Shown piece by piece: positions 1 to 62,540 of a stretch of 64,000 nt of DNA (its first letter is position 1; each line of letters begins with the position of its first letter). Position numbers and translations under genes: made by a program. The DNA is from Holosporales bacterium (lineage in GTDB: Bacteria > Pseudomonadota > Alphaproteobacteria > Paracaedibacterales > CANFPP01): positions 30,781 to 94,780 of the forward strand of contig CANFPP010000002.1 of assembly GCA_947449005.1 (NCBI GenBank), read 5' to 3'. The notes below the pieces were generated by a model. The model was not told where the DNA came from. It searched no databases and was given only the letters and a program-made list of their open reading frames with translations.

Positions 1-970
1 TGAGTAAATGATTCGGTTTATAATGAAAGCCAGTCTCAATTGAATGTTCTTGAAGATACGCCTTTAAAGAATCTCTTTTATCAGGATTAACCTTAACCGG
101 GAACATATGAGGATCTGTAATGTTTCTATCAATCTGGAATTGTTCGATATTTTTCGTATCTAAAAGTCTATCGTATTCAGTTAATAACTGGCGTCTTGTT
201 GCTGCAAAACGATCAATTTTCTTCAGCTGAGCTCTGCCAATTGCCGCGTTAATGTTGCTCATGTGATAACGCCATCCTTGTTCGGTGACATCAAAATCCC
301 AGGAACGTTGACCAGAGTAACGCTTATCAGAATCCTTTTCGACCCCGAGCAACCTTAGATCTTTGATCTTGGCGTTTATTTTTTTATCTTTTGTAACAAC
401 AGCGCCACCTTCACCGCAGGTAATGTTTTTAATGCTATCAAAGCTAAAGCAAATAATATCTCCAGTAGCGCCCACGCGTTGCCCTTGGTAATAACCACTA
501 AAGGAATGAGCAGCATCTTCGATAACACGCAAATTATGGCGTTTGGCAAGCTCATAAACGCCAGCTAAATCTCCGAATCCTCCGGCATAATGAACGGGCA
601 TCAAAGCTTTTGTGCGGGGGGTTATTTTCCTTGCTGCATCTTCAACATCCATAAAGCCAGTCGAGAGATCAACGTCACAAGCTATCGGAGTTGCTCCAGT
701 TGCAGAAACCGCTTGAAACGAGGCAACATAAGTTAAAGATGGAATAATCACTTCGTCACCAGGGCCTATGCCACAAGCTTGTGTTGCAAGATGAAGCGCA
801 GATGTTCCAGTATTAACGCAGGCAATCTCAACATCATTGCCAATGAAAGCTTTTAGCTCCGTTTCAAAGAGCATAACCTCTTTGCCCATGCCGAGATAAC
901 CGTCTGCAAATACGCGATCAATCGCTTCTCTTTCTTCCACACCTAGGCAGGCTTGTGAGATTTTAATCAT
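1..970 (-). CDS. DegT/DnrJ/EryC1/StrS-family PLP-dependent sugar aminotransferase. Partial: the C-terminus lies beyond the window start.
   Basis: Absent from the ORF track because no stop falls inside the window. Hand translation of the minus strand from ATG 970..968 gives MIKISQACLGVEEREAIDRVFADGYLGMGKEV...RVIEDAAHSFSG...ICFSFDSIKNITCGEGGAVV. The frame stays open to base 1. The SFxxxK..GEGG PLP-lysine region is typical of the family. Confidence 0.8.
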   Translation of the reverse strand, partial: MIKISQACLGVEEREAIDRVFADGYLGMGKEVMLFETELKAFIGNDVEIACVNTGTSALHLATQACGIGPGDEVIIPSLTYVASFQAVSATGATPIACDVDLSTGFMDVEDAARKITPRTKALMPVHYAGGFGDLAGVYELAKRHNLRVIEDAAHSFSGYYQGQRVGATGDIICFSFDSIKNITCGEGGAVVTKDKKINAKIKDLRLLGVEKDSDKRYSGQRSWDFDVTEQGWRYHMSNINAAIGRAQLKKIDRFAATRRQLLTEYDRLLDTKNIEQFQIDRNITDPHMFPVKVNPDKRDSLKAYLQEHSIETGFHYKPNHLL

Positions 971-4847: not shown

Positions 4848-5087
4848 GATTCAATATTCCAGTTCCTTGTTGATCTTTTTAAGGGTATTTAAACCAATAC
4901 TGATTAGCAAGAGGTGATTTAATTTTATTTAAAATTTTCTCTAATTAATGTCAATGAGCTAATCTCTGGAAAATATCTTGACATTTTTTTGGAAATCTTT
5001 ACCAACTCTGAATTATATCACTCTCTAATATTTCCATTTAAGAGAACGGTAAATATTTATCAAGCCTTTTGTGAGGAAGAATTTATT

Positions 5088-6212
5088 ATGAGTCATGATA
5101 ATCATCGTCCCTATCGTGTGATTAACCGCAGGAAAACGCGCCAGATTTTTGTTGGATCTGTACCGATTGGTGGTGATGCTCCTATCACAGTACAGTCCAT
5201 GACAAACACGCTGACAACGGATGTTGAGGCAACTGTTGCACAGGTACGTCGGTTGCAAGACGTTGGGGCGGATATTGTTCGTATCTCTTGCCCTGATGAA
5301 GAATCAACTCTCGCTCTTGCAAAAATAATTCCTCAGATTCAAGTTCCAATTGTTGCAGATATCCATTTTCATTATAAGCGTGCGATTGAAGCTGCGAAAG
5401 CTGGTGCAGCCTGTTTGCGTATTAATCCAGGGAATATCGGCTCAAAGGAACGCGTTGCAGAAGTTGTGCAGGCTGCAAAAGATTATAACTGCGCCATCCG
5501 AATTGGCGTGAATGGCGGTAGTCTTGAGAAATATCTTCAGGAAAAATATGGTGAACCTTGTCCAGAAGCAATGGTTGAGAGCGCGTTGACGCATGCAAAA
5601 ATTCTCGAAGATCATGATTTTTTTAACTTCAAAATTAGTGTGAAAGCATCGGATGTTATGCTTGCGGTTGCTGCTTATAAAGGGCTTTCGGAGGTTTGTG
5701 ACTATCCATTGCATTTAGGTATTACAGAAGCGGGCGGCCTTCGTTCCGGAACAATTAAATCATCTATTGGTATTGGTATGTTATTGATGCAGGGAATTGG
5801 TGATACGATTCGCATCTCTCTATCAGCTGAACCAGAAGAAGAAATTCGTGTTGGATTTGATATCTTAAAGTCTTTGGGATTGCGCCACAGAGGGGTTAAT
5901 GTCATTTCTTGCCCGTCATGTGCTCGTCAACAATACGACGTCATTAAGACAGTTGAACTGCTTGAACAACGCCTTTCTCACATTACAACGCCTCTAACAG
6001 TTTCTGTTATTGGGTGTGTTGTGAATGGTCCGGGCGAGGCTAAATCTACAGATATTGGCTTTACCGGCGGTGGCAATGGAACGCATCAGGTTTATATTGC
6101 TGGTCTTCCGGCTCATCGTTTGAAAGATGAAAACATTGTTGATCACCTCGTTATGATGGTGGAAAAAAAAGCTGCAGAGATTGAGGCTGAGAAGATAGCT
6201 CTTGCGAGTTAA
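5088..6212 (+). CDS. ispG: 4-hydroxy-3-methylbut-2-en-1-yl diphosphate synthase (IspG/GcpE)
   Basis: The sequence ...[25 protein letters not shown]...CPSCARQ...GCVVNGPGE is diagnostic. I prefer ATG 5088, preceded by gaggaag at 5073..5079, over the TTG-initiated track ORF start at 4989. Confidence 0.95.
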
Positions 6213-16367: not shown

Positions 16368-17339
16368 GTGTGTTTTTTATTATCAATTATACTTCCTTTT
16401 CAGTCAGCCGAGGCTCATGCGCCAGCAGTTACATACACTCCAGATCAATTCTGGGAAGACTATGAGACAAACAAGTCAGTCACAAATGTTGTAGAGCATG
16501 TTCAAAAATTATCTACCCGAATGGAGACAGATACCCTTGAAAGATTAGAGTTTAAAAAGGCGTCTGTACTGTGGTTTTTGGCAACAGGTGGAAAGTATGG
16601 TTTTCTAAAAAGAGTTGCCACATCTGCTGAAAAAGACATTATGATAAATGCTTTAATTTTTGGAACTATGTTACATAGGGTCAGTCATGTTGATGAGATA
16701 TTGCATCTTATTGATGTCCGCAGAGATGCAGAAATTGCGACAGAGGATGATTTAGTAAGCACGCATCTGATGGAGGCACAAAGAATAATAACAGCAACAC
16801 AGATTATGCTTGTTAGCTCTTCGCAAAATCTAAAAAAACGCATACAAGAACTCTTCAATAATGAATATATGGCAACAGTTCCGCCTTCTGAAAATATTAA
16901 ACCGGAGACTGCTGAATGGCAGCAAGAGGTTGGAATTTTTTCTAATGTCTTTACGATAAAATTTGATAAACAAACAAAACAAATCTTCAAGAACTTAAAG
17001 CTTAGTTTTAATGACCCCAAGAAGGCGTACCTTGGTTTTAAAAAATCATCAAACGAAGAAACAGCGGTTAAATTTCGAGAACTTGTTTTAGCGAACTGTG
17101 CACACTTTTTAGCAGGCCAAGAGAGTTCTATTTTTTATTCAGAGCATCACTCTCATGACAGCGATTCCGATGACGAAAATGATAGTGGAATTGATCCTTG
17201 TAGCGTTGACCTAGCTAAACAATTTTTTTGCGCGTCAAGTAAATCGCCCATGCTTCTTCGAGATGCAAAATTAACTTTAACAATTGAGATGCCTACTAAA
17301 GATGAGGAAAGTGATTCATCTTCTGACGAAAAAGAATAG
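16368..17339 (+). CDS. Secreted protein of unknown function, paralog family member 1 (acidic Ser/Asp-rich C-terminus)
   Basis: Hydrophobic N-terminus ending in SAEA. Conserved blocks are shared with ORFs 31147..32139 and 33933..35015 (FW.DYET, VVEHV, KKASVLWFLATGGKYGF, LIF..MLH, THL..Q.IITAT, FNNEY, GFK, FRELVLANC). The start is uncertain: GTG 16368, or upstream non-canonical codons at 16347/16353. Confidence 0.6.
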   Translation: MCFLLSIILPFQSAEAHAPAVTYTPDQFWEDYETNKSVTNVVEHVQKLSTRMETDTLERLEFKKASVLWFLATGGKYGFLKRVATSAEKDIMINALIFGTMLHRVSHVDEILHLIDVRRDAEIATEDDLVSTHLMEAQRIITATQIMLVSSSQNLKKRIQELFNNEYMATVPPSENIKPETAEWQQEVGIFSNVFTIKFDKQTKQIFKNLKLSFNDPKKAYLGFKKSSNEETAVKFRELVLANCAHFLAGQESSIFYSEHHSHDSDSDDENDSGIDPCSVDLAKQFFCASSKSPMLLRDAKLTLTIEMPTKDEESDSSSDEKE

Positions 17340-31146: not shown

Positions 31147-32139
31147 TTAAGAGTAAATAACTCTCATAATGTTTGCAAAACGCCTGATCTCGTTTAGAAA
31201 CTCTTCTTCAGTTTGAAGTTTGCTCATCGTGACATCATTAATCGTTAAGCTGATTCCACTGCTCATACTTCCCCAGCTTACTCCTCTGTCACTTCTTGAT
31301 ATCATGCCTTTATCTGTTATAACTTGCATAGGTCGACAAGTGGTGGACTGAGTAGAAGCTTGTCTTGCAACAAGAGGTTGCCTTAGTGAATACAATTTAG
31401 GATCTGGCGTACAATTTTCTAAAACAAGCTGACGGAATTCTGCAGCTGTTGTTTCTGTTGCTGGCTCTTTAAAGCCAAAATATCCATTAGGAATGCGATA
31501 GCCCAAATGTGAAAATGTTGTTTTTGCAACGCGATCAAAACTTAATGTTAAAATAGAAGAAAATTCCTTAACTTCTTGTTGCCACTGCTCTATTGAGAAA
31601 TGCTTAAGATTTTTAGAAAATAAAGCCGTGCTAATATATTCATTGTTGAAATGCTGCTGCGTGATTTCTCTCAAATCCTCAAATGATCCATAACGTAAGA
31701 TATGTGTTGCTGTTATGATTTTTTGTACTTCAGTAAGATGTGTTTTGGTCACTTGATCTTCTGTTTTAATCCCTGCTGCTCTTCGTATATTAATAATAGG
31801 TAAATAGCTTTGTGGGTTGCCCACTTCATGCAAAATTGTTGCAAAAATTAAGGTGGCCACCATAACTTCTCTCTCTGCCGGTGTCGCTAGAGTTTTGCGA
31901 AAACCATTTTTCCCGCCTGTTGCCATAAACCATAAAATAGCTGATTTTTTATGCTCTAGTCGTTGAGGTGTATCTATTTCCAATTTGGTTGACAGACTCA
32001 TAACATGTTCGACAACACTTCTCACTTTTCCACTTTGTGCTGATGTTTGGTACTCTTGCCAAAATTCATCGGGAGAACCCGCTATGGCAGAGCTAAACTG
32101 CACTATAATTAGTAATAAACTGATACGTAAAAATAACAT
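31147..32139 (-). CDS. Secreted protein of unknown function, paralog family member 2
   Basis: Signal-like N-terminus MLFLRISLLLIIVQFSSAIAG. It is collinear with members 1 and 3 over about 250 aa (KKSAILWFMATGGKNGF, LIFATILHEV, THLTEVQKIITATHIL, FNNEY, FGFKEPATETTAAEFRQLVLENC). Confidence 0.65.
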   Translation of the reverse strand: MLFLRISLLLIIVQFSSAIAGSPDEFWQEYQTSAQSGKVRSVVEHVMSLSTKLEIDTPQRLEHKKSAILWFMATGGKNGFRKTLATPAEREVMVATLIFATILHEVGNPQSYLPIINIRRAAGIKTEDQVTKTHLTEVQKIITATHILRYGSFEDLREITQQHFNNEYISTALFSKNLKHFSIEQWQQEVKEFSSILTLSFDRVAKTTFSHLGYRIPNGYFGFKEPATETTAAEFRQLVLENCTPDPKLYSLRQPLVARQASTQSTTCRPMQVITDKGMISRSDRGVSWGSMSSGISLTINDVTMSKLQTEEEFLNEIRRFANIMRVIYS

Positions 32140-32310
32140 TTCATTTCCTCATTTTATATTTAAATTGTACATCATGAGGCATAAATATACACATTAAATA
32201 TTAAAATCAAGATATTTTTTGTATATTAAGAAATTGAGGTGAGGGCTCTGTTTCATCAGAATATGGTGAGCTAAGTTTTTTATATGCAGATCCCTAAATA
32301 AATATTTTTT

Positions 32311-32411
32311 AAAAATAAGGGATTTATATAATTCTAATATATTAATCCCTTATTTTTATAATTTGACAAATAAGGGATTAATATGACATGTTTATACAAA
32401 TCCCTTATTTG
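32311..32411. promoter_or_regulatory. Two tandem palindromes (13-14-bp perfect arms, 19-bp spacers) in the divergent region between paralog 2 and the ATPase gene. Candidate operator sites.
   Basis: aaaaataagggatt(32311..32324)-N19-aatcccttattttt(32344..32357), then caaataagggatt(32367..32379)-N19-aatcccttatttg(32399..32411). Confidence 0.5.
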
Positions 32412-32423
32412 ATGAAAAGTGAT

Positions 32424-33890
32424 ATGGAAACTAAAGAAATAATAGGTCGGGACAAAGAAAAGGAAAAACTTCAAAAGGCTTTTTTCTCTAAAGAATCTGA
32501 ATTTATTGCAGTTTATGGCCGTCGTCGTATTGGAAAAACTTTCTTGATTCGTCATTTTTTTTCCAAACAAAAAGGAGTTTTTTTTCAAGTTTCGGGTATT
32601 CACTATGCTGATTTAAAGGTTCAACTGAAAGAATTTAAAAAAGAAATAGAACGTGCATTTTACAATGAAAAGGTTGAGTTAAAAGCTCCTGATACGTGGA
32701 TGGAGGCTTTTGAAATGCTTACAAACTCAATAAGCATGTCAGATAAGAATAAAAAAATTGTTTTGTTTTTAGATGAATTTCCTTGGATGGCAACTAGAAA
32801 ATCTGGATTACTCCAAGCTTTAGACTATTTTTGGAATCGTTTTTGGGTTGATCTGACTAATGTTAAATTGATTATTTGTGGATCAGCCGCTTCATGGATT
32901 ATTAAAAATATTCTGAATAATAAAGGCGGTCTTCATAACCGAGTGACTCTAAAGCTAAACTTAGAGCCATTCTCTTTACATGAAACAAAATTGTACCTAA
33001 AGTATTTGGGGGTTAAGTTAGATAATTATCAAATTTTAACGCTTTATATGTGTATTGGCGGTGTTCCCTTTTATTTAAAATCTATCGAAAAAGGCTTGTC
33101 TGCTGTTCAAAACATCAATCACTTATGTTTTAAAAAAGATGGTCTTCTTGCTACTGAGTTTAAAGAATTATTTACGTCTCTCTTTGAGGAAAGGGGGCAA
33201 CACGAAACTCTGATCAAGTTGATTGCCTCTAAAAGAAATGGGATAAGTCGAGTAGAGCTCGAAAAGCATATACAACATAAAGGTGGAACATTAACATCTT
33301 GGCTAAAAGAGTTAGAAACCGCTGGTTTTATCTCTTCTTTTCTCTCATTTGGTAAAGAGAGAGGAACTTATTATAAAATCATAGATGAATATACGTTGTT
33401 TTATTTAACGTGGGTGCATCCAAATTCTCAAAGCCGTCTGCAAAAAGAAATAACATCTCATTATTGGGAAATAATTTCTCAAACCCCTGCTTGGAAAGCT
33501 TGGTCAGGATATGCTTTTGAATCAATTTGTTATAAACACATAAATAACATACAGAAAGCTCTTAATGTTCCTGAAGGATCGAGTGCAACGACATGGAGAT
33601 ATGTTCCCCCTAAAAAAATAGAAGAGGAGGGCGCGCAGATAGATCTTTTGTTTGACCGACCAGACAGTAGTATTACCTTGTGTGAAATAAAGTACTCTAG
33701 TGATCATTTTGTCGTAGACAAAGCAGAAGCAAAAGAACTTCTAAGAAAAAAAAGTGTTTATCAAAAAATCATGAAAACAAAAAAACACATTTTTGTCTCT
33801 ATGATTACTGCCTCTCGTCTAAAAAAGAATATGTATTCAGAAGAACTTATTGACTCTGAAGCTACGTTAGATGATCTGTTTAATTGTTAA
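32424..33890 (+). CDS. AAA-type ATPase of the archaeal-ATPase/DUF234 family
   Basis: GRDKEKEKLQKAFFSKESEFIAVYGRRRIGKTFLIRHFF (Walker A), VLFLDEFPWM (Walker B), and a C-terminal DUF234-like region (WRYVP...IDLLFDR...LCEIKYS). The start is uncertain between 32388, 32412 and 32424. Confidence 0.8.
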   Translation: METKEIIGRDKEKEKLQKAFFSKESEFIAVYGRRRIGKTFLIRHFFSKQKGVFFQVSGIHYADLKVQLKEFKKEIERAFYNEKVELKAPDTWMEAFEMLTNSISMSDKNKKIVLFLDEFPWMATRKSGLLQALDYFWNRFWVDLTNVKLIICGSAASWIIKNILNNKGGLHNRVTLKLNLEPFSLHETKLYLKYLGVKLDNYQILTLYMCIGGVPFYLKSIEKGLSAVQNINHLCFKKDGLLATEFKELFTSLFEERGQHETLIKLIASKRNGISRVELEKHIQHKGGTLTSWLKELETAGFISSFLSFGKERGTYYKIIDEYTLFYLTWVHPNSQSRLQKEITSHYWEIISQTPAWKAWSGYAFESICYKHINNIQKALNVPEGSSATTWRYVPPKKIEEEGAQIDLLFDRPDSSITLCEIKYSSDHFVVDKAEAKELLRKKSVYQKIMKTKKHIFVSMITASRLKKNMYSEELIDSEATLDDLFNC

Positions 33891-33932
33891 AAAAGCAACG
33901 AAATAGTTATTAGTTCGATGAAAGAATATATA

Positions 33933-35015
33933 TTACCGAACTTGCACGAACCGAGAAGCAAAAAAACTTCCAGAAACAGAAGAATAACCTCCTCCAGGGG
34001 CTAGAGTATGTTTTAATTGCAGAAGCTCCTGCGATAAATTTAAAAAATATGGAACACTAAATTTAGCTAGCAAACTATTATTTCCCTGTTCTGTTGGTAT
34101 GGAGTGTTTCCATGATATTTTTTCTGAACCATTAACAGTAGTCGTTGTTTTTTCGTACTTTGGGCGAAACACTAATTTGGGAGGAGTAGTCCTCTTATTA
34201 GAAAAACCATTTTGTTCAAAAGATTCAAATCCTTGTATACAATTTTCTGCAATGAACTTACGAAACTCTGCAGCACTTGCTTCCGTTGCTGGTTCCTTAA
34301 AACCAAAAAATGAAGAAAGTAATTTATCTTTATTGAAAACTCGTTTTTCTCTTTGATCTAAACCGAGTACAAAGATATCTGAAAATTCTTGAGCTTCTTG
34401 CGTATATTGAGGAGGCGTAATTGATTTAAGGTTTTTGAGGTGTAAAACTGTTGGTAAATATTCTTTGTTAAAAAGTTCTTTTACATAATCCCCTAGGGTT
34501 TTTGGGGCGTATGATAGTAATAGACCGCAGACATTTGAGCCATGAAACATAATACGGGTAGCAGTTAGTATTTTTTGAACTAGTAACAAGTGTGTTTTTA
34601 CTTCAGTGTTTCCTGTATTTGTATCAATGGATAAAAGGTCAGTGTGATGTCTATCTTCATGCAAAATCGCTATAAAAATTAAGGCATCTACCATAATACC
34701 CAATTCTTCTTGTGTAGCGGGCTGCTGGCGAAAACCATATTTTCCACCTGTTGTCATAAACCACAAAATAGCTGCTTTTTTGTATTTCATTTGTTCTGAC
34801 AGTTTTTGTCTATATTCAGGTAATTCGGAAGTCTTAATTTGATCAAAATCATCTGTATTTGGCTGTGTTGCTAGACCATGAACATATTCTACAACATTTG
34901 AAACTACCTTGTTTTTCTTTGCTGTTTCGAAGTCGCTCCAAAAAATTTCTGGAGTTTCCGCTATAACTGAACTGAACGAAAGAATAACTAATAAACTGAT
35001 GCGAAAAACTAACAT
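33933..35015 (-). CDS. Secreted protein of unknown function, paralog family member 3
   Basis: MLVFRISLLVILSFSSVIAETPEIFW..., KKAAILWFMTTGGKYGF, LIFIAILHED, THLLLVQKILTATRIM, FNKEY, FGFKEPATEASAAEFRKFIAENC. It starts 50 bp downstream of the ftsQ stop on the same strand. Confidence 0.65.
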   Translation of the reverse strand: MLVFRISLLVILSFSSVIAETPEIFWSDFETAKKNKVVSNVVEYVHGLATQPNTDDFDQIKTSELPEYRQKLSEQMKYKKAAILWFMTTGGKYGFRQQPATQEELGIMVDALIFIAILHEDRHHTDLLSIDTNTGNTEVKTHLLLVQKILTATRIMFHGSNVCGLLLSYAPKTLGDYVKELFNKEYLPTVLHLKNLKSITPPQYTQEAQEFSDIFVLGLDQREKRVFNKDKLLSSFFGFKEPATEASAAEFRKFIAENCIQGFESFEQNGFSNKRTTPPKLVFRPKYEKTTTTVNGSEKISWKHSIPTEQGNNSLLAKFSVPYFLNLSQELLQLKHTLAPGGGYSSVSGSFFASRFVQVR

Positions 35016-35065: not shown

Positions 35066-36034
35066 CTAAGTCTCTTTTCCTTTAATCTTCGCTCTGACTG
35101 CAGCTTCCGGAGAAAGCTTGAGGATGGTTTGTTTTGGAATACGCAAATCTACAACAGAAACATCGCCGGCAATTAGTTTGTTTTTTTCTATCAGAAAAGA
35201 TAGGCGCACAAGGGCGGCTTCTGGTTTATTTTCTGGAAGTTTGACTTGGATGTTACCTTCTAGATTTAAATCCCAACGTCGTTGACGAATCCAAACCATA
35301 GTCTTTAATTTCTTGCGAATTACAGGAAACTTTTCCAAGATTTTTATCATCACTGAGACATGCGCAGGTGCATTATCACCCGCAACAATTGGCAGGCGTT
35401 TGAAAAAATCAGCACTGGGATTTGAGATAACCACACCTTCATCATCTACTAAATAATAGTTCTTTTGGTGTTGCCATAAAGCAATAGGATTCCGCTCAGC
35501 CAATGAAATATACAAGATATTGGGAAGTTGTCTTTTTACCGTGGCTGAACGTACCCAATCAATTTTTTGTAAACGATTTTTAATTTCATCCAGATTGTGT
35601 ATCAGGATAGGCTCACCCCGATTAGCTGCTACGGCGCTCAAGATTTGTTGTGAAGAAGATTGATGACGTCCTTCAACCATAATCTCATCAACTCTAAGTC
35701 CAAGTTTTCCGGAGAATTCAATCCCTTTCTGCGACAGTGCGTCACTTACTTTTTGAGGATAGCCAGACCACCATAAAGCACTAAGAATTATAACAATTAT
35801 AAGAAGAGGGCTAAAAGATTGAAGCACCTTAACGTATGAGAGATTTGATGAACGAATAGGTTGCCGGCTGCGAGTAGATGTGCTTTTTCTAAGAAGTTTA
35901 TTAAATGCTAATCGCTTATGCACAAAGTCCCACAGGCGATTATTATTCCGTTTTAAAACAAACTTCTTCGTCGTCTTTGTCGCAAGACGTCGTGTCGGCA
36001 TTCCTTTGGCTTTATTTTTATTTACAAACCACAT
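35066..36034 (-). CDS. ftsQ: Cell division protein FtsQ
   Basis: Basic N-terminus, one TM segment, a POTRA-like region (LRVDEIMVEGRHQSSSQQI) and its position after ddl. Confidence 0.85.
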   Translation of the reverse strand: MWFVNKNKAKGMPTRRLATKTTKKFVLKRNNNRLWDFVHKRLAFNKLLRKSTSTRSRQPIRSSNLSYVKVLQSFSPLLIIVIILSALWWSGYPQKVSDALSQKGIEFSGKLGLRVDEIMVEGRHQSSSQQILSAVAANRGEPILIHNLDEIKNRLQKIDWVRSATVKRQLPNILYISLAERNPIALWQHQKNYYLVDDEGVVISNPSADFFKRLPIVAGDNAPAHVSVMIKILEKFPVIRKKLKTMVWIRQRRWDLNLEGNIQVKLPENKPEAALVRLSFLIEKNKLIAGDVSVVDLRIPKQTILKLSPEAAVRAKIKGKET

Positions 36035-36942
36035 TCGGCATTTTCGATCATTGATTGAATTAGTTGAGAAAAATTCATTTTGTTAAACACAGCAATTTCT
36101 GGAACGAGAGAGAGAGGAGTCATACCTGGTTGAGTATTAACCTCTAGAAGATAGAAATCTCCTGTACCGCCGTGTGTATCATCATAGCGAAAATCTGCGC
36201 GTGTTACACCACGACAATTTAAGGCTTTGTGTGCTTTTAAAGCAAGATCTAACGAAGTTTGGTACGCTTTCGGTGAAAGCCTTGCGGGCATGATATGCTC
36301 TGCTTTGCCTGGTGTATATTTTGCTTCATAATCATAAAAACCTGAAAGTGGACAAATTTCAATGGCGCCAATTGCTTGATTATTGATGACAGCAACCTGG
36401 ATTTCTTTGCCAGGAATATATTTTTCAATAAGGATATCATTGCCGTAACACCAATTTTCAATAGCCTTATTATATTCTGTATCATCACAGACAATATAAA
36501 CACCTCTACTTGAACCTTCTCCAACCGGTTTAATAACATAGGGAAATAACATTGGATGTCCCTTTTTTAGATCATCAAAAGTGATGAGCTCCCACTCGGG
36601 TGTTTTAATTCCCTCACTTGCAAAAACTTTACGGGAAAGAATTTTATCCATCGCAATTGCAGAAGAGACAACTCCAGAATGTGTGTAGGGAATGCCAAGA
36701 ATTTCTAAAACACCCTGTATAGTTCCATCTTCACCACCAACGCCATGCAGGGCATTAAAGATAACATCAGGACGAGGCGTAAGGGCATTCAAAAGTGCTT
36801 GTAAGTCTCGACTAACATCAATTGGCAAAACTTCATACCCAAGTTCCTTTAATGATTCAACGACTGCAGCTCCAGACACAAGAGAAACCTCTCGTTCAGA
36901 CGACCATCCACCCATTAAAACTGCAACTCGCTTTGACGTCAT
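36022..36942 (-). CDS. ddl: D-alanine--D-alanine ligase
   Basis: VAVLMGGWSSEREVSLVSG, HGVGGEDGTIQG and the ATP-grasp C-terminus EVNTQPGMT. Confidence 0.95.
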   Translation of the reverse strand: MTSKRVAVLMGGWSSEREVSLVSGAAVVESLKELGYEVLPIDVSRDLQALLNALTPRPDVIFNALHGVGGEDGTIQGVLEILGIPYTHSGVVSSAIAMDKILSRKVFASEGIKTPEWELITFDDLKKGHPMLFPYVIKPVGEGSSRGVYIVCDDTEYNKAIENWCYGNDILIEKYIPGKEIQVAVINNQAIGAIEICPLSGFYDYEAKYTPGKAEHIMPARLSPKAYQTSLDLALKAHKALNCRGVTRADFRYDDTHGGTGDFYLLEVNTQPGMTPLSLVPEIAVFNKMNFSQLIQSMIENAECGL

Positions 36943-37842
36943 TTATTGTTCCCCTAATCTTATTATTTCCCACTCCAGCTGAACGCCTGAAGTTTCTAGA
37001 ACTCGCTTCTGTACTTGAGTTCCTAAATCTTCAAGATCATTACTTTTAGCATTAGCAAGATTGAGAAGAAAATTACAGTGTTTCTCTGATACTTGAGCAT
37101 CGCCAATGCGAAGACCGCGACAGCCGGCAGCATCAATAAGTTCCCACGCTTTCTTATCTTTGGGATTCTTAAAAGTACTCCCTCCTGTTTTCACGCGGAT
37201 GGGTTGCGCCTCTTCTCGAAGAGCCAAGAATTTTGATAAAGTTTCTTCAATCTCATCAATAGGTTTTGCGTCCAAATGAAAGGCTGCTCTTAGCACAATA
37301 GTCTGCTCTGGTAGCTCACTATGACGATATGTCATTTTTAAATCATCAGTTTTTATTTTATAAATTTTTCCAGAATGATCAATGACTTCAATCCAAAGCA
37401 ATGAATCTTTGATTTCTCGATTATAAGCTCCCGCATTCATTGCAATTGCTCCACCGATGGTTCCGGGAATTCCTACCAGAAATTCTAAACCGCTCAGACC
37501 AAGTTCACTGCACTGCATCGCAACTGTACGGTCGAGACAAGCGGCACCAACGATAAGCTCATTATTAGTCGCAGATATTTCTGAAAAGCCCGAGCCCAGC
37601 TTTATCACAATTCCCCTAATACCGCCTGCACGCACCAAGCAGTTCGAACCAGCTCCAAGAATAGTAACTGGCAAATGTGCAGGCTTGTTCTTTAGAAAAT
37701 CAGCTAAATCATCGCTATCACTTGGGCGAAATAAAACATCAGCCGGTCCCCCAACTCGAAACCAAGTGGAAGAGGCTAAGGGGGCATTATGCGTGTAGCG
37801 ACCGCGAACAATTGGCAGTGCATTGGTAGGCGTAGACGTCAC
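36943..37842 (-). CDS. murB: UDP-N-acetylenolpyruvoylglucosamine reductase
   Basis: TWFRVGGPADVLF, ILGAGSNCLV, GGSTFKNP and the dcw context. Confidence 0.95.
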   Translation of the reverse strand: MTSTPTNALPIVRGRYTHNAPLASSTWFRVGGPADVLFRPSDSDDLADFLKNKPAHLPVTILGAGSNCLVRAGGIRGIVIKLGSGFSEISATNNELIVGAACLDRTVAMQCSELGLSGLEFLVGIPGTIGGAIAMNAGAYNREIKDSLLWIEVIDHSGKIYKIKTDDLKMTYRHSELPEQTIVLRAAFHLDAKPIDEIEETLSKFLALREEAQPIRVKTGGSTFKNPKDKKAWELIDAAGCRGLRIGDAQVSEKHCNFLLNLANAKSNDLEDLGTQVQKRVLETSGVQLEWEIIRLGEQ

Positions 37843-39326
37843 CCCAGATTCTCCTGTTGGTGACTAATAGGTTGGTCCCAGAGTTGATCCAGTTGCGCCG
37901 GTAAAGCTGCAGCCCAGTACGTAATGCTTCCTGCGCCAAGGCACAAAACAGTGTCATTCTCTTGAGCAATTCTGCGAATGATATAGGGTAATTCTTTAGT
38001 ATCTTCAATTTCAAAAACTTGATTTATTCCTTGGCTGCGGATTGCTTCAGCCAAATTCTTTGAAGAAATGTTGGGAATTGGCTCTTCTCCAGCACTATAA
38101 ATTGGGGCAACAACGACACTGTCGCATTCTTTAAAACACAGGGAAAACTCTTGGAACAGATCATTTAGACGGCTGTAACGGTGTGGTTGCACAACGGCGA
38201 TAATTTTTCCGTCCGTTGATTGTTTTGCGGCCTCAATAACGGTTTGAATTTCTACAGGATGGTGAGCGTAATCATCAATAATAGTGACGCCACCGCTCAC
38301 ACCTACTTTAGTAAATCGGCGCTTCACACCTTTAAAATTTTTGAAGGCTGTTCTAACAGTTTCATCATCAATCCCGAGCTCTTGAGCAACCGCAATTACT
38401 GATAAAGCATTTTGAATATTATGCTTACCAAGCATGGGAAGTTTTATATCCTTTAAGCGTCTTGGAAGCGCTGTTATACCGCCATTTTTAATTTCTTTTT
38501 GAACGAGGAAAGAATGGTGGTGAAGAGGTTGTATATCAACATCGAAAGTCGAGTATTCAGCAGACATCCTGAGATTAGTTGCACGTACATTCGCTTTTTC
38601 ATCAAAACCATAAGTTAAAATACGGCGATTGCTAATGAGAGGGATTAAAGATTGAACTTCCGGATGATCAAGGCATAAAATACCTAGTCCATAAAAAGGG
38701 GTATTCTCAATGAACTTAAGAAACGAATTTTTTAAGTTTTCAAAATTGCCATAAAAATCCATGTGCTCAGGATCAATGTTGGTGATAATTGCAAGAGTTG
38801 AGGGGAGTTTTACAAAGCTTCCGTCAGATTCATCGGCTTCAACAACAATCCACTCGCCTGTACCAAGGCGAGCATTTGTGTTGTAAGCATTAATAATGCC
38901 TCCATTAACAACTGTTGGATCCATATCTGCTGTGTCGAGGAGAGCCGCAACTAAAGATGTTGTTGTCGTTTTACCATGAGTTCCTGAAATAGCAACTGAT
39001 AGCTTAAGGCGCATTAATTCCGCTAACATTTCAGCTCTTTGGATTACGGGAATCCCAAGGGTTTTTGCAGCAAGAACTTCTGGATTTTCTGGGCTTACAG
39101 CTGAGGAAACGACAACAACCTGTGCATCTTTAATATTCTCTGCTTGGTGGCCAATTGTTATTTGAATCCCGAGGGTTTGTAGACGGCTAATATTCACATT
39201 TTCGGCAATATCGCTGCCTTTAACTTGATAACCTATGTTATGCAGAACTTCCGCAATTCCACTCATTCCAATGCCACCAATACCTACAAAATGTAAATGT
39301 TTAACAGTTTGAGTTGGAATATGCAT
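37839..39326 (-). CDS. murC: UDP-N-acetylmuramate--L-alanine ligase
   Basis: HFVGIGGIGMSGIAEVL, ISGTHGKTTTT and DDYAHHP. Confidence 0.95.
   Translation of the reverse strand: MHIPTQTVKHLHFVGIGGIGMSGIAEVLHNIGYQVKGSDIAENVNISRLQTLGIQITIGHQAENIKDAQVVVVSSAVSPENPEVLAAKTLGIPVIQRAEMLAELMRLKLSVAISGTHGKTTTTSLVAALLDTADMDPTVVNGGIINAYNTNARLGTGEWIVVEADESDGSFVKLPSTLAIITNIDPEHMDFYGNFENLKNSFLKFIENTPFYGLGILCLDHPEVQSLIPLISNRRILTYGFDEKANVRATNLRMSAEYSTFDVDIQPLHHHSFLVQKEIKNGGITALPRRLKDIKLPMLGKHNIQNALSVIAVAQELGIDDETVRTAFKNFKGVKRRFTKVGVSGGVTIIDDYAHHPVEIQTVIEAAKQSTDGKIIAVVQPHRYSRLNDLFQEFSLCFKECDSVVVAPIYSAGEEPIPNISSKNLAEAIRSQGINQVFEIEDTKELPYIIRRIAQENDTVLCLGAGSITYWAAALPAQLDQLWDQPISHQQENLG

Positions 39327-61348: not shown

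Positions 61349-62540
<1,192 letters not shown>

Follow-up and report, generated by a model that had tools for sequence, protein, structure and literature searches.

A conserved array of alternating half-sites as a candidate self-encoded operator of a bacterial ATPase-nuclease gene

Introduction

Plasmid Rep initiators such as RepA of pPS10 and RepE of F are winged-helix dimers that repress their own synthesis at an inverted repeat over the rep promoter. Among AAA+ proteins, Orc1-2 of Saccharolobus is a non-initiator Orc1 that regulates transcription and binds at the promoter of its own gene (PMC9738581). In bacterial defence, BrxR and CapW are winged-helix proteins that keep a defence locus repressed from inverted repeats in its promoter (PMC9122601). 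Here we describe an array of palindromes at positions 32311-32411 of a 64,000-nucleotide stretch of a Holosporales bacterium contig (the whole stretch is called the window). It lies directly upstream of a plus-strand gene (32424-33890) for a 488-residue protein that itself combines an AAA+ ATPase, a winged helix and a nuclease domain. The inverted repeats coincide with a likely promoter, and their sequence varies with the winged helix of the adjacent protein.

The protein belongs to PDC-S27, an unvalidated single-gene defence candidate that had about 8,000 matches in one survey, 43% of them archaeal, and ranked among the most frequent candidates (PMC12988326). Tested in Escherichia coli B, one PDC-S27 representative failed to protect against T4, T5 or T7 (10.1101/2024.09.26.614923). 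Literature on DUF234, PF03008, PF01637, COG1672 and 2QEN was limited to domain classification and described no upstream repeats, and none of the literature that we searched describes the array.

Results

Reading the sequence at 32311-32411, we found AAATAAGGGATT four times in strictly alternating orientation. The copies form two palindromic units with perfect arms of 13-14 bp. Unit 1 consists of a left arm, AAAAATAAGGGATT (32311-32324), a 19-nt AT-rich spacer (32325-32343) and a right arm, AATCCCTTATTTTT (32344-32357); after a gap of 9 nt, unit 2 has a left arm, CAAATAAGGGATT (32367-32379), and a right arm, AATCCCTTATTTG (32399-32411), likewise 19 nt apart. A repeat search recovered the same arms as a 49-nt direct repeat at 55-bp spacing plus matching inverted repeats, and added a degenerate fifth half-site, ATCCCTAAATAAAT, in reverse orientation at 32290-32303. 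This half-site is in register, with the next core 27 bp away, and resembles the right arm of unit 1 in the homologous locus L065, AATCCCTAAATAA. The half-site centres (core AAGGGAT) fall at 32293, 32320, 32348, 32375 and 32403, that is, in steps of 27-28 bp with alternating polarity. Spacer sequences differ both between the two units and between homologues. The spacer of unit 1 also holds a perfect TATAAT (32327-32332), for which neither strand offers a recognisable -35; in several relatives, too, TATA-like hexamers lie immediately inside the arms.

An earlier, sequence-only reading of this DNA had reported the twin palindromes, their arms and spacers, the 9-bp separation and the position between a divergent gene on the minus strand (31147-32139, paralog 2 below) and the ATPase gene, all of which our analysis reproduced exactly. 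Its judgement that the pattern is unlikely to arise by chance also held: the 64-kb window has two matches to AAGGGAT-N15-30-ATCCCTT, and 100 dinucleotide shuffles gave none. The exact 10-mer ATAAGGGATT has five copies in the window, four of them in the array. A search for further sites, which the same reading had proposed, found no other palindrome of this motif in the 64 kb, so the motif is not a generic repeat there.

The geometry of the array is conserved across homologues. In the three closest (74-78% identity), which have unrelated flanks, two xxAGGGATT-N19-AATCCCTxx units lie directly upstream of the start; across the four closest loci the arms and a TTGA are invariant and the spacers variable. 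From a metagenome scan in which some 600 or more loci appeared, we took 80 with 38-53% identity to the ATPase; nearly all of these keep the geometry, with two to three units, in quite different arm sequences. We scored an array where a 9-mer with at most one mismatch and at least three G or C occurred at least twice forward and at least twice in reverse within 210 nt upstream of the gene. By this measure 47 of 78 unique homologous loci (38-78% identity) carry an array, against 0 of 390 dinucleotide shuffles, and control regions scored in 0 of 78 cases inside the gene and in 1 of 58 far upstream; exact 8-mers, found in 19 of the 78 loci, were too strict and were superseded by the 9-mers with one mismatch. 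Together with the alignment of the closest loci, this is the positional conservation expected of an autoregulatory operator.

Within the arrays, orientation alternates (FRFR) over up to seven half-sites, unit number varies among loci from 1.5 to 3.5, and same-orientation lags cluster at 51-56 bp. Detection by palindromes only gave at least three consecutive dyad centres 24-31 bp apart in 36 of 75 loci; the arms are therefore common to neighbouring units and not only paired within one unit. Half-sites are private, differing between loci yet identical in all four to seven copies of a given locus, and they are concentrated in the 5' region of the gene (16.5 per kb, vs 0.36 per kb elsewhere in the loci). 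Array and gene occur together in unrelated genomic contexts and in different phyla, never with a conserved regulator gene beside them. Isolate examples are the Malaciobacter mytili plasmid pAMYT and a Candidatus Paracaedimonas plasmid. Among distant relatives from IMG/VR (21-37% identity), only 1 of 43 had an array, which makes the array a feature of one clade and not of the whole PDC-S27/ATPase_2 superfamily.

Three loci have extra units of their own private half-site directly 3' of the ATPase gene (L144 3826-3980, L108 3733-3800 and L093 2710-2752). L144 has, in addition, a third array (5026-5150) upstream of an unrelated 312-residue gene without a family match.

Aligning the loci on the promoter-proximal dyad centre revealed a recurrent promoter layout. 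In the subgroup that includes the window, a TTG is fixed 25-26 nt left of the centre and a -10-like hexamer begins 2 nt left of it (for example, TTGCAT-17-TATAGT in L067, TTGTGC-17-TACAAT in L073 and TTGCAT-17-TATGGT in L081). More broadly, 19 of 46 loci, including the window, fit TTGnnn-16..18-nAnnnT in a frame where the -35 begins 25-31 nt to the left of the proximal dyad centre and the -10 falls on that centre. The putative -35 of the window, TTGACA (32363-32368, plus strand), abuts and overlaps the left arm of unit 2, and the three closest homologues have TTGA(C/T/A)A immediately 5' of their second unit. A weak putative -10, CATGTT (32387-32392, plus strand; three of six matches), follows 18 bp after the -35 on the unit 2 dyad centre (32389), at the position homologous to the TATAGT, TACAAT and TATGGT of relatives. 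Judging from this -10 position, transcription would start near 32399. The left half-site of unit 2 fills the interval between -35 and -10, and the right half-site, with the predicted start at its first bases, covers +1 onward. A dyad over the promoter is the arrangement of an autoregulatory operator; here the promoter is assigned by positional homology.

The ATPase matches PADLOC PDC-S27 over its full length (PDLC04984, E = 3.7e-173, 574.7 bits, profile positions 2-473 of 474) and Pfam ATPase_2 (PF01637) above the gathering score (56.5 bits vs a cut-off of 33.2); its match to Pfam DUF234 (PF03008) lies just under the cut-off (22.3 vs 22.5 bits). In an alignment of 22 homologues the Walker motifs, E366, D407 and E421-x-K423 are invariant; E366, D407 and E421-x-K423 make up a PD-(D/E)XK signature. 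An AlphaFold2 model (pLDDT, the predicted local distance difference test score, 86.9) comprises an AAA+ core (residues 1-235, of which 64-105 form a two-helix insert), a lid, a winged helix (residues ~270-320, nt 33231-33383, with helices 276-283 and 288-299 and a wing at 303-319) and a probable PD-(D/E)XK nuclease domain with an alpha/beta core (residues 340-488). The sequence-only reading had assigned a C-terminal winged-helix-like domain to DUF234 ATPases. The model instead puts it in mid-protein, outside DUF234 and within an AAA+ module of the Orc/Cdc6/STAND kind, and DUF234 would correspond to the C-terminal nuclease domain, in line with its membership of the PD-(D/E)XK superfamily (PMC3424549).

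Foldseek matches to the model were the Pyrococcus abyssi Walker ATPase 2qen, archaeal Orc/Cdc6, ORC subunits, STAND/NLR modules and RuvB. E-values were about 1e-8 to 1e-6 for 1w5t, 1fnn and the ORC subunits and comparable for STAND/NLR and RuvB, with TM-scores of 0.3-0.47. The protein has the AAA+ core, lid and winged-helix fold of the Orc1/Cdc6 family but fails its sequence model (TIGR02928, 15.2 bits vs a cut-off of 181.3, E = 0.007). In a profile search against PDB sequences, residues 236-321 aligned weakly to MarR-type winged helices.

If the adjacent protein reads the half-sites, their sequence should track its DNA-reading residues. A single half-site sequence shared by all copies within a locus and diverging between loci is the pattern expected from a common trans-acting factor that itself diverges with the locus; hairpins would not require such sharing. 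At the 47 array loci we compared half-site similarity with identity over protein segments by partial Mantel correlation, controlling for the rest of the protein. Residues 236-335 gave a partial r of 0.29, reached in 0 of 2,000 permutations; the rest of the protein, controlled for residues 236-335, gave r = -0.001. A 30-residue sliding window peaked at residues 261-310 (r = +0.295 with the rest controlled, 0 of 1,000 permutations), with minor peaks at 61-90, in the helical insert, and 171-200. The co-variation is localised to about residues 241-310, the winged helix; the nuclease domain (r = -0.009) and the ATPase core (r = +0.03) showed next to none.

Among closer homologues, five loci have AAGGGATT at every half-site and three have AAGGGAC, and only 3 of 488 alignment columns have fixed differences between the two groups: L195K, N272E and T289R. 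By overall identity, L216 is equidistant from both groups. Residue 289 (nt 33288-33290) follows an invariant GG at the N terminus of the recognition helix and is hypervariable, with at least 12 amino acids across the 47 homologues. A further protein with T289, P0040, was chosen in advance and had GGGATT arms, as predicted. Altogether, T289 goes with GGGATT half-sites in six of six cases and R289 with GGGAC in three of three. Half-site sequence and the putative DNA-reading residues are correlated both across the family and at a single position of the recognition helix.

The start codon of the ATPase gene affects how unit 2 is read. The sequence-only reading had raised this, with 32388 and 32412 as possible starts. 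ATG 32424 is the most likely start because alignment to the PADLOC profile starts at residue 16 of the longest open reading frame (ORF) and homologues begin MEIKIIGR; both arms of unit 2 therefore fall outside the coding sequence, which settles the point. The public protein P0001 (500 residues) starts at ATG 32388, inside the putative -10 and the second palindrome.

In the neighbourhood of the ATPase gene, murC, murB, ddl and ftsQ occupy 35066-39326 on the minus strand, followed on the same strand by two 40%-identical paralogs, paralog 1 (33933-35015) and paralog 2 (31147-32139), with the ATPase gene between them on the plus strand. Neither paralog had a match in Pfam, NCBIfam or PADLOC. Both have signal-peptide-like N termini and are placed after ftsQ, where ftsA and ftsZ are usually expected; a third short stretch with weak DNA similarity to them lies at 16554-16605. 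Rfam gave a single match above gathering score in the whole window, a tRNA gene (61349-61422).

The window and a contig from a 98.8%-identical strain (L147) correspond from ddl as far as 33924, 9 nt beyond the paralog-1 stop, which places the 3' edge of a variable cassette at 33891-33924. Beyond the divergence, L147 has a scaffold gap and then, replacing the ATPase cassette, an HNH endonuclease gene (L147 3015-3946) that matches Pfam HNH_2 and PADLOC PDC-M68A and CBASS-effector-like models. The ATPase gene, which encodes the sole protein of its cassette, is therefore a variable cassette in a variable slot, apparently acquired horizontally, and the slot behaves like a small variable hotspot of defence-type genes. 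With its scaffold gap and an end before paralog 2, the L147 contig covers the right side of the insertion. In several other genomes (L216-L220, homologues of 57-65% identity) the gene is solitary between housekeeping genes, with only 1-50 bp of intergenic DNA on its 3' side; flanking genes there are def/fmt and glmM, bolA/grx, hemY and a sensor kinase, and queH. The gene does not always lie within a recognisable defence island.

Discussion

Our favoured reading, in which we place a little more than even confidence, is that the array is the cognate site of the cassette's own product, an autoregulatory operator recognised in the manner of Orc1/Cdc6. The Orc1/Cdc6-like AAA+/winged-helix module would read one half-site per protomer, the winged helix doing most of the reading with a possible contribution from the helical insert of the AAA+ core. 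Protomers would tile the DNA in alternating polarity over the five half-sites, about 27.5 bp apart. In the proximal unit, the -35 would lie at the left edge, the -10 on the dyad centre and the transcription start in the right arm; with the promoter elements embedded in this way, occupancy should exclude RNA polymerase. The result would be cooperative negative autoregulation of a potentially toxic ATPase-nuclease, with the upstream unit or units adding cooperativity. The sequence-only reading had suggested operators and autoregulation. Array conservation, promoter overlap and winged-helix co-variation now give that suggestion comparative support, and from them we infer binding by the protein, repression through binding and the stoichiometry.

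Several points weigh against this reading. An inverted half-site spacing of about 27.5 bp is far wider than that of ordinary dimeric winged-helix repressors, and the equivalent winged helix of STAND ATPases usually does not bind DNA. A generic promoter scan called no promoter at the site, where the window's -10 is weak, and a clear sigma-70 layout is present in only 19 of 46 loci; loci of the TTTGGC type may use other kinds of promoter. The contrast between T289 and R289 comes from nine loci, and L219 combines GGGAC with A289. Partial Mantel tests can be anticonservative for phylogenetically related sequences. Finally, the 3' units in three loci are not explained by a pure promoter operator.

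The wide spacing, the variable unit number and the 3' units lead us to keep a different role for the array under consideration, at a probability we regard as low. The ATPase would still bind the array, with transcription control secondary, and the array would serve as a private assembly or licensing platform on which the protein polymerises, like the site of an archaeal replicator-initiator pair. Its purpose might be nuclease storage or arming, infection sensing, melting of the AT-rich dyad centre, or a cis role in mobility or maintenance of the cassette. The fold resembles Orc/Cdc6, and archaeal origins are AT-rich, flanked by origin recognition boxes (ORBs), adjacent to the initiator gene and specific for their initiator (PMC4010727). 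Even tiling at 27.5 bp over 1.5 to 3.5 units resembles a track for a filament more than it does the operator of a dimer. The extra 3' units in L144, L108 and L093, the third array by another gene in L144 and the occurrence of the gene as a solitary insertion between housekeeping genes fit this picture as well, as does the failure of a PDC-S27 representative to protect against T4, T5 and T7. On the other side, the proximal unit is locked to promoter elements, which an operator requires but a platform would not; the nuclease domain does not co-vary with the sites; the protein scores far under the cut-off of the Orc1/Cdc6 family model; and neither the window nor most loci have a second end. In its fullest form, which we consider rather less probable still, the protein would be a bacterial counterpart of a replicator-initiator with a nuclease, polymerising in alternating polarity at one protomer per ~27 bp on a private, co-evolving track, with the array serving either to store and license the nuclease, as an immune sensor on self DNA, or as the cis site of a selfish cassette.

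The operator reading could also hold with a different binder. Separately encoded regulators are the usual binders of defence-gene operators, BrxR being an example (PMC9122601). Operators for a host-encoded regulator or a generic DNA-binding factor are nonetheless very unlikely. The array accompanies its gene across contexts and phyla with no conserved regulator neighbour, its half-sites differ from locus to locus in step with the winged-helix segment of the ATPase itself, and the motif occurs as a palindrome nowhere else in the window. No ORF or domain of the winged helix-turn-helix-WYL type is present in the cassette, and the neighbours are unrelated paralogs.

Very unlikely too, and placed just behind the host regulator, are mobile-element ends or internal repeats, a dispersed family such as miniature inverted-repeat transposable elements (MITEs) or repetitive extragenic palindromic (REP) sequences and bacterial interspersed mosaic elements (BIMEs), or recombination sites. 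The ATPase segment has 32% G+C, vs about 39% for the window; an HNH-type gene takes the same slot in the 98.8%-identical strain; and in a few loci units flank the gene on either side. Alternating orientation is also reminiscent of BIMEs. However, the mobile-element ends that the sequence-only reading had offered as a second explanation are not what the comparison revealed: the repeats are confined to the 5' side in the window, with no copy at 33891-33932, and in 44 of 47 loci, 3' copies being present in only three, so terminal inverted repeats of a transposon were rejected. The predicted transcription start, within unit 2, also speaks against such ends. Nor is the motif dispersed. The 64 kb hold no other palindrome, about 287 kb of flanking DNA from other loci hold no dispersed copies, and density outside the arrays is at chance level, which led us to reject a dispersed REP/BIME or MITE repeat; no transposase or REP-associated tyrosine transposase (RAYT) gene is present either. 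A scan of 185,579 species genomes, the source genome not among them, for ATAAGGGATT-N17-21-AATCCCTTAT returned 61 single palindromes in unrelated taxa, none beside a homologue, and the same core gave six single, unrelated matches in viral contigs. Exiguobacterium sequences (L002, L007, L008, L013, L020, L036, L043, L046, L049, L051 and L058) carry many ATAAGGGATT-N17-21-AATCCCTTAT palindromes, several of them at contig ends, which suggests an unrelated repeat family that shares the arm sequence by coincidence.

Least probable is that the repeats act as a DNA cruciform or an RNA hairpin (attenuator or terminator) with no sequence-specific protein, hairpins having been another proposal of the sequence-only reading: the array does fold far better than shuffles (RNA z = -8.3, DNA z = -7.0), with alternative pairings possible, but hairpins need complementarity only within units and here the inter-unit dyads equal the intra-unit ones, 19-nt loops on 13-bp A/T-rich stems make poor hairpins, the predicted transcription start lies in the last arm of unit 2 so that the mRNA would lack the stems, and an intrinsic terminator or structured RNA was rejected because the site has neither a terminator-like G+C stem with a T-run nor an Rfam match.

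The co-evolving array suggests that the PDC-S27 protein binds DNA sequence-specifically, and in each genome it marks the site that is probably cognate, with residues 272 and 289 as candidate specificity determinants. It gives an uncharacterised, abundant family a direct experimental handle in the form of a defined 100-bp substrate. Negative phage tests in a heterologous host might also be explained, as constructs that include the native array may stay self-repressed. If the operator reading is right, a defence effector would carry its own operator-reading module, and inverted-repeat recognition in the style of Orc1/Cdc6 would extend to bacteria; if the array is instead a platform or the cis site of a selfish cassette, it would represent an immune sensor anchored on self DNA or a new kind of selfish element.

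Of the known systems that combine a private repeat with an adjacent protein gene, REP/BIME sequences with their RAYTs have alternating palindromic units and a repeat specific to the protein gene it flanks, as here. REPs are, however, dispersed in tens to hundreds of copies, whereas the sites described here are confined to the 5' region of the gene and come with no HUH transposase. Plasmid Rep initiators likewise share a self-encoded winged-helix protein, an inverted repeat at its own promoter and a replicon-specific site. Rep proteins differ in having no AAA+ or nuclease domain; their iterons are direct repeats, and their operator half-sites are adjacent and not 27 bp apart.

The pairs of ORBs and orc1/cdc6 genes in archaea are similar in that a gene for an AAA+/winged-helix protein lies beside inverted repeats around AT-rich DNA (PMC4010727; PMC3089459), and in that repeat and protein diversify together into locus-specific pairs. 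Orc1 reads its site by the winged helix and an initiator-specific motif (ISM); here co-variation is strongest over the winged helix and has a minor peak where a helical insert occupies the matching place. Unlike the archaeal pairs, the present system has a bacterial host and a C-terminal PD-(D/E)XK nuclease, and it fails sequence membership (15 bits vs 181). Its repeats are tiled at 27.5 bp and locked on a sigma-70 promoter, and the locus is chromosomal and beside division and cell wall (dcw) genes.

Orc1-2 sets a precedent for an AAA+/ISM/winged-helix protein that regulates its own promoter, with specificity set by ISM and winged-helix residues and modulation by ATP (PMC9738581). It differs in recognising a short asymmetric hexamer, ANTTTC, at many promoters, where it activates a DNA-damage regulon, and in having neither a nuclease domain nor an alternating array. 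BrxR and CapW, which resemble the proposed repressor in acting from promoter inverted repeats on a defence locus, are separate small proteins with a WYL sensor domain and usually one operator (PMC9122601). In the system described here, by comparison, the effector itself would carry the DNA-reading module, and its site is a multi-unit array.

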